Source of the DNA: a virus
DNA: 10,714 nucleotides
Virus genome (UHGV): UHGV-0188446
Reading direction: 5' to 3' (one strand)
In this document: piece after piece, positions 1 through 8,526 of the stretch
Layout: each line of letters begins with the position of its first letter
How positions within the stretch are numbered: position 1 is the stretch's first letter
The notes under the pieces: generated by a model
The model's input: only the letters and a program-made list of their open reading frames with translations
What the model was told of the DNA's origin: nothing
Databases searched by the model: none
Program-made: the position numbers and the translations under genes

Positions 1-13
1 GGCTTGTAATGGG

Positions 14-361
14 TTAAGTGATAACAGATGTCTGGAAATATAGGGGCAAATCCAGGCCTTCGCGAAGGATTACCTTCATCGCGATAAGCTCATTCTTGGC
101 CTTGTTTACCTTCTGTCTTGGCAGCCTGGTAATTTGAGCTAACTGACTATCAGAGATGCGATCCATCTTTTTACCGTATCCGTATGTTTTACGGCATATG
201 GCGTGGGCAACCTTACTCTGATTTTTTGTTAAATCTGCGCCGATAAGCTCTTCATACAGGGCATTTGCAAGACGGGTATAACCATCTTCAACTTCTGCCA
301 CACGACGCTCCACAGGCCGTTGTGAAGGCCTTAAATGTGTTACGGTTGCAAGATTACTCAT
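14..361 (-). CDS. O: Lambda O-like replication initiation protein, N-terminal origin-binding domain; frame stops after 115 aa (truncated, pseudogenised or short variant)
   Basis: ORF track 14..361 with ATG at 361-359 (complement). The N-terminal segment ([55 protein letters not shown]) closely resembles the lambda O N-terminus as I recall it. It lies directly downstream of cII as in lambdoid phages. Stop codon at 16-14 (complement). Confidence 0.6.
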
Positions 362-500
362 GACCTTTCTCCTTCTGCATCAGCTTCACTTTTTCCAACT
401 CAGCCCGGAATCGACCAGGCTGCTTGAAGCTGGACAGGAAGCGATCACGTAGTATGTGTTTGTGAATTTTGTCCTGGTAAGGACTGAGTTGTTTTGTCAT
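354..500 (-). CDS. Small basic hypothetical protein (48 aa) between cII and O; not in the ORF track (<60 aa)
   Basis: Hand translation of the complement from ATG at 500-498 gives [48 protein letters not shown], stop at 356-354. A strong Shine-Dalgarno AGGAG (complement of 506-510) lies 5 nt upstream. Its 3' end overlaps the O start codon, suggesting translational coupling. Confidence 0.3.
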
Positions 501-514
501 AATTACTCCTGTGG

Positions 515-590
515 ATTGATCCAGTAATTCCCTCAGAATTGCATATCAATTTGCTTAAAATCCTCGGTGGCAGCCGGGGATTTTTTCTTT
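515..590 (+). ncRNA. oop: Candidate oop-like antisense RNA ending in an intrinsic terminator, antisense to the 3' end of cII (5' end not defined)
   Basis: Plus-strand hairpin 559-582 (aatcctcgg / ccgggggatt, 9 bp with one G-U pair, loop tggcag) followed by a T-run to 590, located inside the 3' end of the minus-strand cII-like CDS. This matches the position and orientation of lambda oop. No clean promoter was identified by eye. Confidence 0.3.
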
Positions 591-829
591 GTGATTTCAT
601 CAAGCGCATACTTAAAAGCCCTGCTAATCGGACTGATGTCTGATGCCATTCCAAAAGCACACAAGACCGAAGCAATAAATCTCCAGTCCGTTCTGCTTAT
701 CTTCGATTCATGACAGCCAATCATCTTTGCCAGACCGCGCTGGGTAAGCGTTGACAGGTTGATGAGTAAATCTGTTTCTGCGCGATCAATTTCTCGCTGT
801 GTTGGCTTGCTGTAACTTGCTTGTGTCAT
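533..829 (-). CDS. cII: CII-like transcriptional activator of lysogeny establishment (divergent from lambda cII, same family)
   Basis: ORF track 533..829, 98 aa. Position between cro and O. HTH-like segment [15 protein letters not shown] and C-terminus [18 protein letters not shown] parallel the lambda CII C-terminus (..NKKRPAATERSEQIQMEF) as recalled. Confidence 0.8.
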
Positions 830-966: not shown

Positions 967-1167
967 TTATGCAGTTGTTTTTTTGTTACTTGGGAAGGGC
1001 TTTATTTCTTCCGCATAAACGCTTCCATCAGCGTTTATAGTTAAAAAAATCTTTCGGCCTGCATGAATGGCCTTGTTAATCGCGCTTTGATATACGCCGA
1101 GATCTTTAGCCGTCTTGGTTTGCCCAAAGCGTATTGCATAATCTTTCAGGGTTATGCGTTGTTCCAT
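967..1167 (-). CDS. cro: Cro repressor
   Basis: 66-aa [69 protein letters not shown], essentially the lambda Cro sequence as recalled. AGGAGG Shine-Dalgarno (complement of 1171-1176). Divergent from cI across the OR operators. Confidence 0.95.
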
Positions 1168-1191
1168 ACAACCTCCTTAGTACAGGCAATC

Positions 1192-1262
1192 ATTATCACC
1201 GCTAGAGGTAAAATAGTCAACACGCACGGTGTTAGAAGTTTATCCCTTGCGGTGATAGATTT
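1192..1262. promoter_or_regulatory. Right operator OR1-OR2-OR3 with divergent promoters PR (toward cro) and PRM (toward cI)
   Basis: Three 17-bp lambda-type operators: OR1 1194-1210 tatcaccgctagaggta, OR2 1218-1234 caacacgcacggtgtta, OR3 1241-1257 tatcccttgcggtgata. PR -10 is GATAAT (complement of 1192-1197) and -35 is TTGACT (complement of 1215-1220) with 17-bp spacing. PRM lies on the plus strand with the cI ATG at 1268 directly downstream (leaderless arrangement as in lambda). Confidence 0.9.
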
Positions 1263-1264
1263 AA

Positions 1265-1981
<717 letters not shown>

Positions 1982-2130: not shown

Positions 2131-2610
2131 ATGGATAAAATTAATTACCCACCCCTGTTTGAGCCAGGGTTCCATGACATGGATGAAGCTGGATTAAAAT
2201 CGTATTGTGTCGATTGCTTTCCTTCATCATCCAGGCGAGGCATGCTATACTGTAATTTTATACAGCTACTCGAATCTATTCGAGAATTATCTGCTCAATA
2301 TGGCTGTTTTACAGAAATATGGGTTGATGGTTCATACACCACGTCTAAACCAGAGCCTGATGATATTGATATTTTGTTGGTATGTGACTATAGCAATATA
2401 AACTCAATACCTGTCATGCTTCGGGGCCGCGTCGATAATTTGCTTGACCGAAACTACATCAAACAAAACTACAAAATTGATGTCCTACTACTCATGAAGA
2501 ATTTAGATGACCCTAACTATGATTATGAGTACTGGCGTAGCTACTGGCGCGGTTGGTTTGGTTTTGATCGCAGTGAAAACCCGAAAGGGTTAGTGAGGAT
2601 TTTTTTATGA
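2131..2610 (+). CDS. Hypothetical protein with minimal nucleotidyltransferase (pol-beta superfamily) signature; first gene of a two-gene cassette in the rexA/rexB position
   Basis: ORF track 2131..2610, 159 aa. Motif IWVDGSYTTSKPEPDDIDILLVCD fits the hG[GS]-x(9-13)-DhD pattern of minimal nucleotidyltransferases. AAGG about 9 nt upstream of the ATG. Stop overlaps the next gene's start (ATGA at 2607-2610). No resemblance to lambda RexA. Confidence 0.7.
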   Translation: MDKINYPPLFEPGFHDMDEAGLKSYCVDCFPSSSRRGMLYCNFIQLLESIRELSAQYGCFTEIWVDGSYTTSKPEPDDIDILLVCDYSNINSIPVMLRGRVDNLLDRNYIKQNYKIDVLLLMKNLDDPNYDYEYWRSYWRGWFGFDRSENPKGLVRIFL

Positions 2611-3539
2611 ATGATAAATCAATGTTTAAAAATTGCGATAAACGCATTGATTTCATTCAAAAAGAAGTCGATGCAATGAAGCAAAACAAAACCAGGTCCT
2701 TTGCTGACATGCTTCTTTATCGCTCCATGGATTCTCATCTGAGCGATTTGAAGGCCGAAAAATTAAAGCAAGATAGTCGGCACCCACTTATCGATTTTTT
2801 TGAGCTGCGGCTGAAAGGCTCTGAGGTTGACTTTGGCTCTATTCCTTTAGAGCTGCTTGGGGCTATTTCAACAAATCTTGCAGCGCTAATACAAAGAGCA
2901 ACACACAAAATTGCCTCAGGCAAGGACTCAAAAAAAGTTCCCTACGACGTGAAAAGCTCCTTAAACCTCAGGCTGGCTGATTTATCCCCTGGGTCTACAA
3001 AATTGGGCGTCACCTTCTCTACAGGAATAGCAGAATTAGTAGAAACAGTACCCAGCAAGGCTGTAAAAGGCATATTCGATTTGTTGTTAAGCGATGACGA
3101 CAACAACTTCATGAATCACGTCGCTGAAATTGGATACAATTCCACTGTAAGCCTTAAGAGAATCGTAGAGGAATGCGATAAACACAACTTAACATTTGAT
3201 GCAAGTTGGACCGGTCCATTTAGTAATGGCACCAAGGTGGCAACTATTGACTCCAATAAAATTAAGTACTTGGTGAGTAGACTTACATCAACCATTTCAT
3301 CCCCTCCCATTACTGAAACGGTTACAGGCGAACTGGTCGTTCTATCCAAATATGGGAAGCTGGAGCTTGATGTTGGTGGTGAACATTTAAAGGCTTCCTA
3401 TCCGATTGAAATGCTAGATTTAATACAAAAAAAACACAAGGTCGGACAGATTGTTTCTCTTTTAGTGGAGACTACTGAGATTCACAATGATCGCATAGGT
3501 CTGTACCGTAAAAACCATCTTGTTAAATCGGTTCTTTAA
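2607..3539 (+). CDS. Hypothetical 310-aa soluble protein of unknown function; second gene of the cassette, translationally coupled to the nucleotidyltransferase gene
   Basis: ORF track 2607..3539. ATG overlaps the upstream stop. No long hydrophobic segments, no Walker motifs, no resemblance to RexB seen by eye. An Rx4H string (RSMDSH, aa 39-44) is noted but is weak evidence. Followed by an intrinsic terminator. Confidence 0.7.
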   Translation: MNDKSMFKNCDKRIDFIQKEVDAMKQNKTRSFADMLLYRSMDSHLSDLKAEKLKQDSRHPLIDFFELRLKGSEVDFGSIPLELLGAISTNLAALIQRATHKIASGKDSKKVPYDVKSSLNLRLADLSPGSTKLGVTFSTGIAELVETVPSKAVKGIFDLLLSDDDNNFMNHVAEIGYNSTVSLKRIVEECDKHNLTFDASWTGPFSNGTKVATIDSNKIKYLVSRLTSTISSPPITETVTGELVVLSKYGKLELDVGGEHLKASYPIEMLDLIQKKHKVGQIVSLLVETTEIHNDRIGLYRKNHLVKSVL

Positions 3540-4941: not shown

Positions 4942-4966
4942 GTTATGTATAAATAAGGAGCACACC

Positions 4967-5107
4967 ATGCAATATGCCATTGCAGGGTGGCCTGTTGCTG
5001 GCTGCCCTTCCGAATCTTTACTTGAACGAATCACACGTAAATTACGTGATGGATGGAAACGCCTTATCGACATACTTAATCAGCCAGGAGTTCCCAAAAA
5101 TGGATAA
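4967..5107 (+). CDS. cIII: CIII, protector of CII (FtsH/HflB inhibitor)
   Basis: ATG at 4967 with AAGGAG 6 nt upstream. 46-aa product MQYAIAGWPVAGCPSESLLERITRKLRDGWKRLIDILNQPGVPKNG matches lambda CIII over its length except for a shorter C-terminus, as recalled. The ORF track shows a longer in-frame form from 4865, which I reject. Confidence 0.8.
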   Translation: MQYAIAGWPVAGCPSESLLERITRKLRDGWKRLIDILNQPGVPKNG

Positions 5108-5213
5108 AACACTTATGGCTATCCAGACTAAATTCACTATCGCCACTTTTATTGGCGATGAAAAGATGTTTCGTGAAGCCGTAGAAGCCTACAGAAAATG
5201 GAGGTCAAAATGA
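5100..5213 (+). CDS. kil: Kil-like host cell-division inhibitor
   Basis: ATG at 5100 overlapping the cIII stop (as kil overlaps cIII in lambda). 37-aa product MDKTLMAIQTKFTIATFIGDEKMFREAVEAYRKWRSK resembles the lambda Kil N-terminus as recalled. The ORF track's longer form from 4974 is rejected. Confidence 0.55.
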   Translation: MDKTLMAIQTKFTIATFIGDEKMFREAVEAYRKWRSK

Positions 5214-5406: not shown

Positions 5407-6087
5407 ATGGGAACTGCGACATTAATACTCGGTGAATCTGGCACCGGAAAATCAACCAGCATGAGAAATATCAACCCAGAGGAAGCAATACTTATAAAAC
5501 CAATAGGCAAGCCGCTACCATTTAAATCAAAAGACTGGCTTGCATGGGATGCCAGAGCAAAAAAAGGAACCGTAGTTACCACTGACAAATGGGACGTAAT
5601 AGTTGCTGTAATTAAGCGTGCTCACGAATACGGAAAAAGAATCGTTATTGTTGATGACTTCCAGTATGTGATGAGCAATGAGTTTATGCGCCGCTCAGAA
5701 GAAAAATCGTTTGATAAATTTACTGAGATAGGCCGCCACGCATGGGAGGTGATTAAGGCTGCACAGGATGCACCTGATGACCTGAGAGTCTATTTTCTTG
5801 CACACACCGAAGAAACCCCTATGGGGCGTGTGAAAATGAAGACTATCGGCAAAATGCTGGACGAGAAAATCACTGTCGAAGGCATGTTTACTATAGTTCT
5901 TCGCACCCTTACCCGCGATGACCAGTTCTTTTTCACCACGAAAAACAACGGTGCAGACACTGTAAAATCCCCAATGGGAATGTTTGATTCTAATGAGATT
6001 GATAACGATCTCTCTTTCGTCGATGCCACTGTTTGTGATTACTACGGCATCAATAATGTTCATCAAATTAAGGAAAACGCCGCATGA
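5407..6087 (+). CDS. Sak4-like phage recombination ATPase (RecA-fold P-loop NTPase)
   Basis: 226-aa ORF with Walker A GESGTGKST near the N-terminus and Walker B-like hhhhDD (RIVIVDD). Size and position in the recombination slot are typical of Sak4-type single-strand annealing ATPases. GAGG Shine-Dalgarno upstream. Confidence 0.65.
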   Translation: MGTATLILGESGTGKSTSMRNINPEEAILIKPIGKPLPFKSKDWLAWDARAKKGTVVTTDKWDVIVAVIKRAHEYGKRIVIVDDFQYVMSNEFMRRSEEKSFDKFTEIGRHAWEVIKAAQDAPDDLRVYFLAHTEETPMGRVKMKTIGKMLDEKITVEGMFTIVLRTLTRDDQFFFTTKNNGADTVKSPMGMFDSNEIDNDLSFVDATVCDYYGINNVHQIKENAA

Positions 6088-6671
6088 GCAACGTGATTTT
6101 TACTTATAACGAAGAAGCAGCACTGACCGCAGGGCAAGGTGGTTTTATTAACGAAACTGGTGCTCATATCATTACCATTACTGAAGCAGAACTAAAGCAA
6201 TCAGAAAAAGGAGCCAAATTTATTGAGTTTTCTGGCGAATCTGACGACGGACGTAAAATCCAATATCTTAGCGTCTGTGTTCAGAAAAATGACGGAACGG
6301 AAAACAAATTTGGCGCAAATGTCGTTCACGCCATGATGGGGTGTGCCGGGATTGGACAATTAACGCAACATATGGTTTCCGCCAGTAAATTTGTTGCTCC
6401 TGAGTTTCATGGAAAGAAAATCGGGTTAGTGCTCCAGAAAGTATTAACCACAAACAAAAAGACTGGCGCAGACAACTACCAGATGGAAATACGCATCCCG
6501 TTTATTGCACAAACAGGTCAAACCCTTAAAGAAAAGGCAGAAGGCAAGCAACCAGAAACTATCGCCAACATGGTTGCCAATCTCAAAGATAAAGACAATC
6601 GCTCTAAAAACGTAAGCCAGAATCATGCAGATGATTATGGTTACAGCCAGAACGATTACCCTGCTTTCTGA
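6084..6671 (+). CDS. Putative ssDNA-binding protein partner of Sak4 (function inferred mainly from context)
   Basis: 195-aa ORF whose ATG overlaps the Sak4 stop (ATGA at 6084-6087). C-terminal tail ..DDYGYSQNDYPAF resembles the acidic/aromatic tails of SSB proteins. Sak4 genes are commonly followed by an SSB. Confidence 0.45.
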   Translation: MSNVIFTYNEEAALTAGQGGFINETGAHIITITEAELKQSEKGAKFIEFSGESDDGRKIQYLSVCVQKNDGTENKFGANVVHAMMGCAGIGQLTQHMVSASKFVAPEFHGKKIGLVLQKVLTTNKKTGADNYQMEIRIPFIAQTGQTLKEKAEGKQPETIANMVANLKDKDNRSKNVSQNHADDYGYSQNDYPAF

Positions 6672-6694
6672 TTACTGAAAATAAGGCTCCCATT

Positions 6695-6991
6695 ATGCCA
6701 GCGCCTCTGTATGGTGCGGATGACCCGCGCAATTGCTCCGGTAGCTCCAAGGCGGAGGTGCTGGAAAATATCAAAAACATTTTCGACACGTTTATCGATC
6801 TGCCACCAGAAACAAAAGCAGAACGGATGTACCGACGCGATATACAACTCGCGTTAAAAAATGAGAAGGACCGAACAAACGAAACATCAATCCGACCATT
6901 CCGCAAAGCCACATATACCCACTTCCCTGAATATATCGACCCGCGCCTGCGTAATTACCGCTCACGCTATGGCGCTATCAGTAATGACTGA
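6695..6991 (+). CDS. Hypothetical protein (98 aa)
   Basis: ORF track 6695..6991. AAGG upstream. Same strand and operon context. Confidence 0.5.
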
Positions 6992-7169: not shown

Positions 7170-8032
7170 GCAAGATTGACTATCAGGTACTGCGTGCCAA
7201 GGCAGAAAAAGCAACGTGTGGTGTATGGTCGCTCGAATATGGAGAGAGCCGATTTGATGGTGATGATGCTCTAATTTATCGCGAGGCTGCTGGATATATT
7301 CCCATTTGCAGAATTGAAGGAGCGCATCCAGAAAGCGGTTTCGATGAAGATTTCCAAATGGAACAGCAGGCCAATGCTGAATTCATCGCCGCAGCCAATC
7401 CCGCTACCGTCTTGGCCCTGCTGGATGAACTGGAAAGAAACCAGCAATACATAAAACGCCGCGATCAGGAGAACGAGGATATTGCGCTAACGGTAGGGAA
7501 ACTGCGTGTTGAGCTTGAGGAGACAAAATCAAAACTCAACGAGCAGCGCGAGTATTACGAAGGTGTCATCTCGGATGGAAGTAAGCGCATAGCAGAGTTG
7601 CAGACAAAATCTGCACCAGATTCGTTTGGCATCATCGGTGAAAATATTCGAACACAGGATAATCGAATAACGTCAGACCCTATGTTTTGTGTGTATCAAA
7701 AGTGCGAAATTGTTGTTGATGCTGATTATGACTATGACCGGATTGTCTGGGTTGATGAAGATGGCAATGAAGCCAATAAACGCCAAAGTCGTCGTCTCGA
7801 ACTACTTCACGAAAACTTTCGAGAGCCACCAGAAAAATGGCGGCGCGTTGCTGTGAAAGATATTGATGAATTCGTTACCTGCTGTTTCACCGAACAGGGT
7901 TGTAAAGACTACCTGGCAGCCAATGGTCACAATCTTCGCTTGCCATTTATATATGTAAAAAGCGGTTTCAGGAACGCTGAATATATCGGCATAAGAAACT
8001 GGCTTGCTGGCATTCGCATCAAAGGAGAGTGA
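7166..8032 (+). CDS. Ea22-like protein (coiled-coil-containing phage early protein of unknown function)
   Basis: ORF track 7145..8032. Preferred start is GTG at 7166 (AGGAGG 8 nt upstream, GTGA overlap with the upstream stop), giving [15 protein letters not shown].... Assignment rests on position upstream of ea8.5 and general resemblance to Ea22-family proteins; not verified. Confidence 0.5.
8007..8032 (+). repeat. 26-bp direct repeat, copy 1 (ctggcattcgcatcaaaggagagtga)
   Basis: Identical to 8501-8526. Encodes the C-terminal GIRIKGE plus stop of the Ea22-like gene and carries the AAGGAG Shine-Dalgarno for the next gene. Confidence 0.9.
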
Positions 8033-8034
8033 GA

Positions 8035-8526
8035 ATGCAAATTTCACCGGTTACTCTTCGTGTTGCGAAGGCGTTTATATCCAGACATCACCGACACAAT
8101 AAACCCCCGGTGGGGCATAAATTCAGCATTGGTCTGAGAAATGATGCCGGAGAATTGATAGGTGTGGCGACAGCCGGTAGACCTGTTGCACGACATTTGG
8201 ACGATGGATTAACGCTTGAAGTAAATCGCACATGTACCACAGGAGAACGCAACGCTAACAGCGCGCTTTATGGTGCTGTCTGGCGGGCAGCAAAGGCTAT
8301 GGGTTATCAACGTTGTATTACGTACACCCAGGCAGATGAATCAGGAGCATCTCTCCGCGCAGCTGGTTTTGTTCGTGTGAAAGAGCTTCCTCCAAGAAAA
8401 AGCTGGGCGGAATCAAGCGTCGCCCTGCGGAGTAAACGCGATCCGGTCGGAAACGGTGGTGTTCCTCGTGTGCTCTGGGAAATCAGGAGAATGAGTACCA
8501 CTGGCATTCGCATCAAAGGAGAGTGA
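8035..8526 (+). CDS. Hypothetical protein (163 aa), possibly GNAT-like fold; inserted gene bounded by 26-bp direct repeats
   Basis: ATG at 8035 with AAAGGAGAG upstream (the track starts at GTG 8029). Product MQISPVTLRVAKAFISRHHRHNKPPVGHKFSIGL.... The C-terminal GIRIKGE plus stop is encoded by the second repeat copy. Fold assignment is a weak impression only. Confidence 0.5.
   Translation: MQISPVTLRVAKAFISRHHRHNKPPVGHKFSIGLRNDAGELIGVATAGRPVARHLDDGLTLEVNRTCTTGERNANSALYGAVWRAAKAMGYQRCITYTQADESGASLRAAGFVRVKELPPRKSWAESSVALRSKRDPVGNGGVPRVLWEIRRMSTTGIRIKGE
8501..8526 (+). repeat. 26-bp direct repeat, copy 2
   Basis: Perfect copy of 8007-8032. Confidence 0.9.

Follow-up and report, generated by a model that had tools for sequence, protein, structure and literature searches.

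Layout and mosaic composition of the prophage arm

The window, meaning the whole 10,714-nt stretch of DNA analysed here (UHGV-0188446), comprises the int-to-O arm of a lambdoid prophage, with the integrase gene cut by its right edge. The host is most likely E. coli, all nearest matches being E. coli records. Bases 1-2000, followed leftward along the minus strand, contain a lambdoid early-right operon with a lambda-type immunity region at 967..1981, in which cI (1268..1981, plus strand), the promoter pR (1220..1192, minus strand; TTGACT-17-GATAAT) that drives the O operon, and cro (1167..967, minus strand) were located. A gene for a 98-aa cII-type activator follows (533..829, minus strand; PF05269, E 4e-33), of the type that accompanies orf48, and then orf48/DUF2740 itself, encoding a basic protein of 48 aa between cII and O (354..500, minus strand). 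The operon runs on into an O-like reading frame (14..361, minus strand) and meets, at the left edge of the window, the right end of an insertion sequence (1..54, plus strand).

Different parts of this operon have different nearest relatives. The cro-cI segment (960-1990) was 96.9% identical to phage lambda (J02459, 37218-38246), whilst bases 354-900, spanning cII and orf48, shared 97.4% identity with Stx phages of the VT2-Sakai type that bear a different O, making the cII-orf48 segment one of the P22/HK022/Stx-phage type. The type of O N-terminus found here is common to prophages in which the next gene is lambda P and to others in which it encodes a Toprim/DnaB-like helicase-primase. Judged from these matches, the prophage is a mosaic of lambda cro-cI, P22/HK022/Stx cII-orf48 and an O N-terminus of a third type. 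Overlapping the 3' end of cII on the plus strand is an oop-like antisense terminator, with a 12-bp hairpin and T tail at 557..584 and an overall reach of ~505-590, for which no Rfam family matched at the gathering score. The oop terminator of P22 is annotated at the equivalent position, with the oop promoter overlapping the orf48 start (P22 annotation; PMC3349717), and by analogy an oop promoter would sit at the start of orf48 here as well.

The remainder of the window, toward the integrase, carries N, ral, cIII, kil, a recombination/anti-RecBCD module and ead-like genes. Among the ORFs checked in the visible 10.6 kb, cI, cro, cII, orf48, N, cIII, kil and abc2 were intact. Downstream of cI, in the slot occupied by rexA/rexB in lambda, lie two overlapping plus-strand genes (2131-3539) encoding a DUF6932 protein of 159 aa and a protein of 310 aa for which Pfam gave no match. 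The pair matched the PADLOC candidate defence system PDC-M63 (A, E 1.8e-41; B, E 7.5e-45) and is probably an anti-phage cassette expressed from the prophage. Further along, a Lambda_thermo cIII thermoregulator RNA element was detected at 4954-5012 (plus strand; 88.5 bits), together with cIII (46 aa, 4967-5107) and kil (37 aa, 5100-5213), both intact and overlapping by 8 nt. A cIII-kil fusion, suggested by a 79-aa ORF at 4974-5213, was rejected given that both genes are intact, the long ORF being an effect of ORF listing and gene calling; the public gene call on the contig, which gives a 79-aa 'Kil' and omits cIII, is likewise a gene-calling artefact. The early-left region (5407-6991 and 8029-8526, plus strand) encodes a P22-type anti-RecBCD protein Abc2 (98 aa, E 2.7e-37), and its gene adjoins those of an AAA_24-like ATPase (226 aa) and a 195-aa protein to which no assignment was made. 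Another early-left ORF, of 165 aa, gave a weak Mom-family match of 23 bits, below the 27.1 cutoff.

The O-like gene and the IS2 end

A sequence-only reading of this DNA had described an O-like gene that reaches a stop at 16-14 after 115 codons, 13 nt short of the window edge; these coordinates are correct, and the stop codon is TAA. The 115-aa product is chimeric, however, consisting of 102 O residues followed by 13 residues and the TAA contributed by an IS2 inverted repeat. The authentic 5' part of O (55..361, minus strand) comprises 102 codons plus 1 nt and encodes an incomplete N-terminal origin-binding domain. Alignment with the intact 286-aa homologue WP_000067069.1 (locus L001) revealed identity at 102 of 102 residues and divergence thereafter. 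The match to the Phage_rep_O profile PF04492 (E 4.6e-32; 110.8 bits against a cutoff of 28.7) spanned profile positions 1-83 of 95 and ended at residue 102, compared with positions 1-95 of 95 in the intact homologue, and all PHROG O-like profiles (232-346 positions) lost their match at residue 102-103. A full-length protein of ~280-300 aa was not encountered at this locus, where authentic O sequence stops at residue 102. Homology to intact prophages at the DNA level began exactly at window base 55. Past the shared GAAGGCC, intact O continues as AGCAAATCGGG (REG-QQIGPN) and the window as TGGATTTGCCCC (REG-LDLPLY and on to the stop). When bases 1-900 were searched against 5,426 complete E. coli genomes, 42 genomes contained bases 55-900 in one place at a query coverage of at least 80%; the 25 of these that were listed showed 94.9-99.4% identity and an annotated replication protein, and none reached left of base 55.

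The sequence to the left of that base belongs to IS2, a member of the IS3 family. Bases 1-58 matched approximately 11,000 places in 3,219 of the 5,426 complete E. coli genomes, where they are annotated as IS3-like element IS2 family transposase. Bases 1-54 (plus strand) form the right terminal inverted repeat, ending in ATAGGGGCAAATCCA at base 54, and are identical to the closing 54 nt of an annotated IS2, complete at 1331 bp (locus L004), which is flanked by a 5-bp duplication, GTGCC. In that copy the transposase coding sequence stops at the base corresponding to window base 43, and bases 2-43 (plus strand; translation read by hand) encode the last 13 codons and TAG of the IS2 transposase, the only visible part of orfAB. 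The inverted repeat characteristic of IS2 is therefore present, and O homology stops exactly where it begins. Set against known IS2 (1331 bp, 5-bp target duplication), the terminal nucleotides agreed at 54 of 54 positions, including the 3' end of the transposase gene, with the join at the last base of the element and the right junction reading GGGGCAAATCCA followed directly by GGCCTTCGCGAAGG. The body of the element lies to the left of the window, with its left end and target duplication off the contig, and the visible part amounts to the terminal 54 nt, or 118 nt in a second contig described below.

The short gene is almost certainly an ordinary lambdoid O of 280-300 codons that has been cut at codon 103 by IS2 and is seen here at a contig end. 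On this explanation, a copy of IS2 lies inside O after nucleotide 307 (codon 103), with its transposase gene oriented against O. Ribosomes translating O would read 13 codons into the right inverted repeat of IS2 before reaching TAA, giving rise to the apparent 115-codon gene, and the product would break off before the end of the origin-binding domain, with nothing of the C-terminal half. Truncation of O in a replication-defective prophage had been among the possibilities raised in the sequence-only reading; that outcome stands, whilst its cause, an IS2 at codon 103, had gone unrecognized. Two other possibilities raised there, a frameshifted O and a genuinely short variant with a separate C-terminal partner, derive from the length of the ORF. 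Neither agrees with what lies beyond base 55, which is the IS2 terminal repeat and not O in any frame, nor with a domain profile cut at position 83 of 95, and every close homologue free of IS2 was 282-301 aa in length. Because the last 13 codons and the TAA come from the IS2 repeat, a frameshift and a natural short variant are both ruled out for practical purposes, and we assign them a negligible probability. Extension of the sequence leftward, proposed as a means of finding out-of-frame O, was provided by the contig L003, which runs 64 nt further and is still IS2. Nor was the short protein found as an intact gene in homologous phages, as had been envisaged: the viable PhiR12 series (recorded hosts E. 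coli K-12 or C) has an O of 301 aa, followed by lambda P as its downstream partner.

The exact 115-aa chimera was called on only three contigs, all from ENA metagenome assemblies (source assemblies of the junction contigs include ERZ28623905 and ERZ19693540). The two contigs compared, L002 and L003, were 100% identical to the window over 1300 nt. L002 ends 13 nt past the stop, as does the window, and its gene coordinates map one-to-one, so in all likelihood the left edge of the window is the L002 contig end. IS2 is a multicopy element, which is why contigs break within it and why the window edge coincides with a contig end. A chimeric contig end, with an intact O in the true genome, was also considered, given that the junction lies 54 nt from the end of the contig in a repeat prone to assembler errors. 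This reading is highly improbable, as the junction was identical base for base in independent assemblies with different contig naming styles. L003, from a separate assembly, with ~22x k-mer coverage and seen in three samples, contained the same junction and extended 118 nt into the element, its additional 64 nt matching IS2. Moreover, the inverted repeat is joined to O precisely at its final base, as expected of transposition and not of a random misjoin. The junction is a real allele. Elsewhere it was absent from the collections searched, with no record covering at least 80% of bases 1-200 among the 5,426 complete E. coli genomes and no match to the right junction in a pattern scan of JGI metagenomes and GTDB species genomes.

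Intact relatives and the interrupted replication module

Intact relatives of O are common and measure 282-301 aa. Searches with the C-terminal half of intact O returned 1157 relatives, and almost all of the best 120 listed were 282-286 aa long. At L001, intact O is paired with a downstream 626-aa Toprim/DnaB-like protein. Within one intact O gene, four 19-bp iterons resembling those of a replication origin (TGTCACC-N5-GGTGACA type; spacing 20-24 bp) occupy nt 354-440 and are followed by an A/T-rich tract, such that iterons and tract together lie 47-132 nt past the position of the break. Both the iterons and the A/T-rich tract were absent from the window. The annotated origin of P22 occupies the equivalent position within gene 18. 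A sequence search of the PDB with intact O returned no solved relative.

Comparison with lambda O and P22 gp18 (PF04492) thus reveals the same N-terminal domain and the same place after cII in the pR operon, and the intact relatives likewise contain intragenic iterons. The copy in the window differs in being cut at codon 103, without 12 of the 95 domain positions, the iterons or the C-terminal half that binds the partner protein. The C-terminal half of lambda O recruits the helicase or helicase loader. To judge from the domain content, O is here a gene fragment and not a functional member of the family. The IS2 copy would have been placed between the DNA-binding domain and the presumed origin, leaving the iterons at least 1.3 kb from pR-driven transcription, or lost altogether. 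With O inactivated and parted from the presumed origin, the prophage would be left without an initiator of its own, and we infer that it is probably unable to supply one. A study of lambdoid prophages suggests that co-resident prophages may make good the replication defect of one defective prophage by supplying replication proteins (PMC2669165).

We also considered whether the fragment, comprising the N-terminal domain and an IS2-encoded tail, might be kept as a dominant-negative origin binder that excludes superinfecting phages with the same origin. It retains its own start and ribosome-binding site together with the larger part of the DNA-binding domain. The allele persists in several samples, and replication-targeted exclusion by cloned fragments of the lambda replication region has been documented (PMC3349717). 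However, pR is repressed in a lysogen, so the fragment would not be made, and the domain is incomplete. The rarity of the allele, seen on three contigs and in none of the 5,426 complete genomes, is in keeping with an insertion that is recent and neutral, and retention of the fragment for exclusion appears very unlikely.

How much of the replication module survives to the left of the contig end depends on the event that placed IS2 there. The element could mark the edge of a deletion or rearrangement, in which case the prophage would be a remnant that has lost the origin and the 3' part of O, and possibly downstream genes as well. Defects associated with IS elements are frequent in lambdoid prophages (PMC2669165), and neither arrangement was present in complete E. 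coli genomes. A junction of the left end of IS2 with the rest of O was not found either, a pattern scan of JGI metagenomes for the 3' part of O, 0-8 nt and the IS2 left end giving no matches. The right junction was also missing from the JGI metagenomes and GTDB species genomes, an absence that can be counted towards a deletion. Yet as the collections searched lack the right junction too, the missing left junction carries no information. The visible genes examined are intact, as a single recent event would leave them, and the allele, confined to three contigs, is a rare one. For these reasons a simple insertion is more economical than an IS2-bounded deletion, which we regard as possible but unlikely, the right junction being the only one visible. 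A simple insertion predicts a left junction in which CCCGATTTGCTGGCCT is followed directly by TAGACTGGCCCCC, with a 5-bp duplication of AGGCC in the sense of O (GGCCT on the other strand).

In lambda, IS2 insertions in the cII-O region account for classical polar mutants such as r32, and a literature search returned nothing relevant on the r32 mutant itself. IS insertions are among the genetic defects listed for lambdoid prophages (PMC2669165). IS-disrupted prophages, such as those of E. coli O157 Sakai, resemble the present case in carrying an IS insertion in an essential gene (PMC2669165), and the difference lies in the element, here IS2, and in the target, here the initiator gene O. The finding is real and its explanation ordinary, with no departure from known kinds of systems. 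It offers a clean example of a prophage that IS2 would inactivate exactly between the DNA-binding domain of its initiator and the origin. In practice, the '115-aa replication protein' deposited from metagenome assemblies is an O-IS2 chimera, and before a short O-like gene at the edge of a contig is named as a new variant, an IS end should be looked for.

When the C-terminal 184 aa of intact O were used as a protein query for the other half of the gene, the matches were full-length relatives and one further protein only (P0004). Encoded on an ENA contig of 2107 nt, this protein belongs to the same O family and has 60-odd unrelated residues fused to NVTKTVTALSPKQ. It was rejected as the partner of the window, for it represents a different rearrangement with a break inside the iteron region of another contig. 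P0004 is a second, independent disruption of an O-type initiator gene.

The orf48/DUF2740 gene between cII and O

The 48-aa ORF upstream of O had been noted in the sequence-only reading as a basic protein gene with a Shine-Dalgarno sequence and no lambda counterpart. Each of these observations was borne out: AGGAG lies 5 nt before the ATG, the predicted protein has a pI of 10.1 with 12 K+R against 6 D+E, and a counterpart is missing from lambda (PMC3349717). The description of the ORF as unannotated did not hold, as public records call the same ORF orf48, hkaW or DUF2740, and in intact prophages NCBI labels its product 'DUF2740 family protein'. The match to PF10872 was end to end (E 8.9e-29; 99.4 bits against a cutoff of 27; profile positions 1-43 of 43), and tblastn located orf48 in 127 phage records. 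The protein was 100% identical in HK022, HK620 (hkaW), HK630, mEp043, mEp235 and Stx phages of the VT2-Sakai type, 85% identical to that of P22 orf48 and 58% identical to the copy of an Erwinia phage. Compared with P22 orf48, HK620 hkaW and HK022 orf48 (PHROG 1913), the gene occupies the same place between oop/cII and the initiator gene and no difference was found, making it a plain member of this group.

The 3' end of orf48 overlaps the start of O by 8 nt (GGTC ATG AGT AA), and both the length of 147 nt and the 8-nt overlap with the initiator gene, ATGAGTAA, are repeated in P22, the Erwinia phage and PhiR12_1. The 12-nt sequence GGTCATGAGTAA, shared by phages of E. coli, Salmonella and Erwinia, and the upstream CAGGAGT were invariant in all four orf48 sequences compared. 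The last codons of orf48 (K-E-K-G-H-E) hold the AAGGAG and the ATG of O, and their conservation is in part due to this Shine-Dalgarno sequence and start codon lying within them. Across the gene, dN/dS values of 0.25-0.35 in three pairwise comparisons indicated purifying selection, and 15 columns were invariant among 21 sequences. AlphaFold modelled Orf48 as a two-helix hairpin (residues 7-25 and 28-44; pLDDT 80), for which a fold search of the PDB gave no match. No defence-system match for orf48 was returned by PADLOC, and a literature search under the name DUF2740 returned no publications. The 'orf48' of one preprint (bioRxiv 10.1101/2023.04.06.535777) was set aside, as it appears to be a gene-library index (orf48 = gnarl1) and no link to P22 orf48 was seen there.

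The arrangement suggests that orf48 would be transcribed from pR and coupled in translation to the initiator gene. The similarity of Stx phages to the window takes in cII and orf48 and breaks off exactly where O starts (354/361 boundary), which shows that orf48 travels with the cII/oop module, though it is placed for coupling to any initiator gene that comes next. On this sequence evidence, mosaic exchange appears to use the overlap of orf48 with O as a module boundary. We consider orf48 most likely to encode an accessory protein of the replication and lysogeny-decision module, whose translation would also feed ribosomes to the O start. Always arranged for translational coupling to O-type initiators in phages of Escherichia, Salmonella and Erwinia, it may regulate the initiation of replication or the cII/oop switch. 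The gene is selected, conserved and placed for coupling to the initiator in the well-studied phages P22, HK022 and HK620 and in Stx phages.

One functional label circulates for this family. PHROG 1913 is described as 'tail protein', which was rejected as implausible for a gene that lies inside the replication module between cII and the initiator gene. The same label has spread to the RefSeq records of HK620, HK630, mEp043, ST160 and Erwinia phage Midgardsormr38, and looks like a propagated misannotation.
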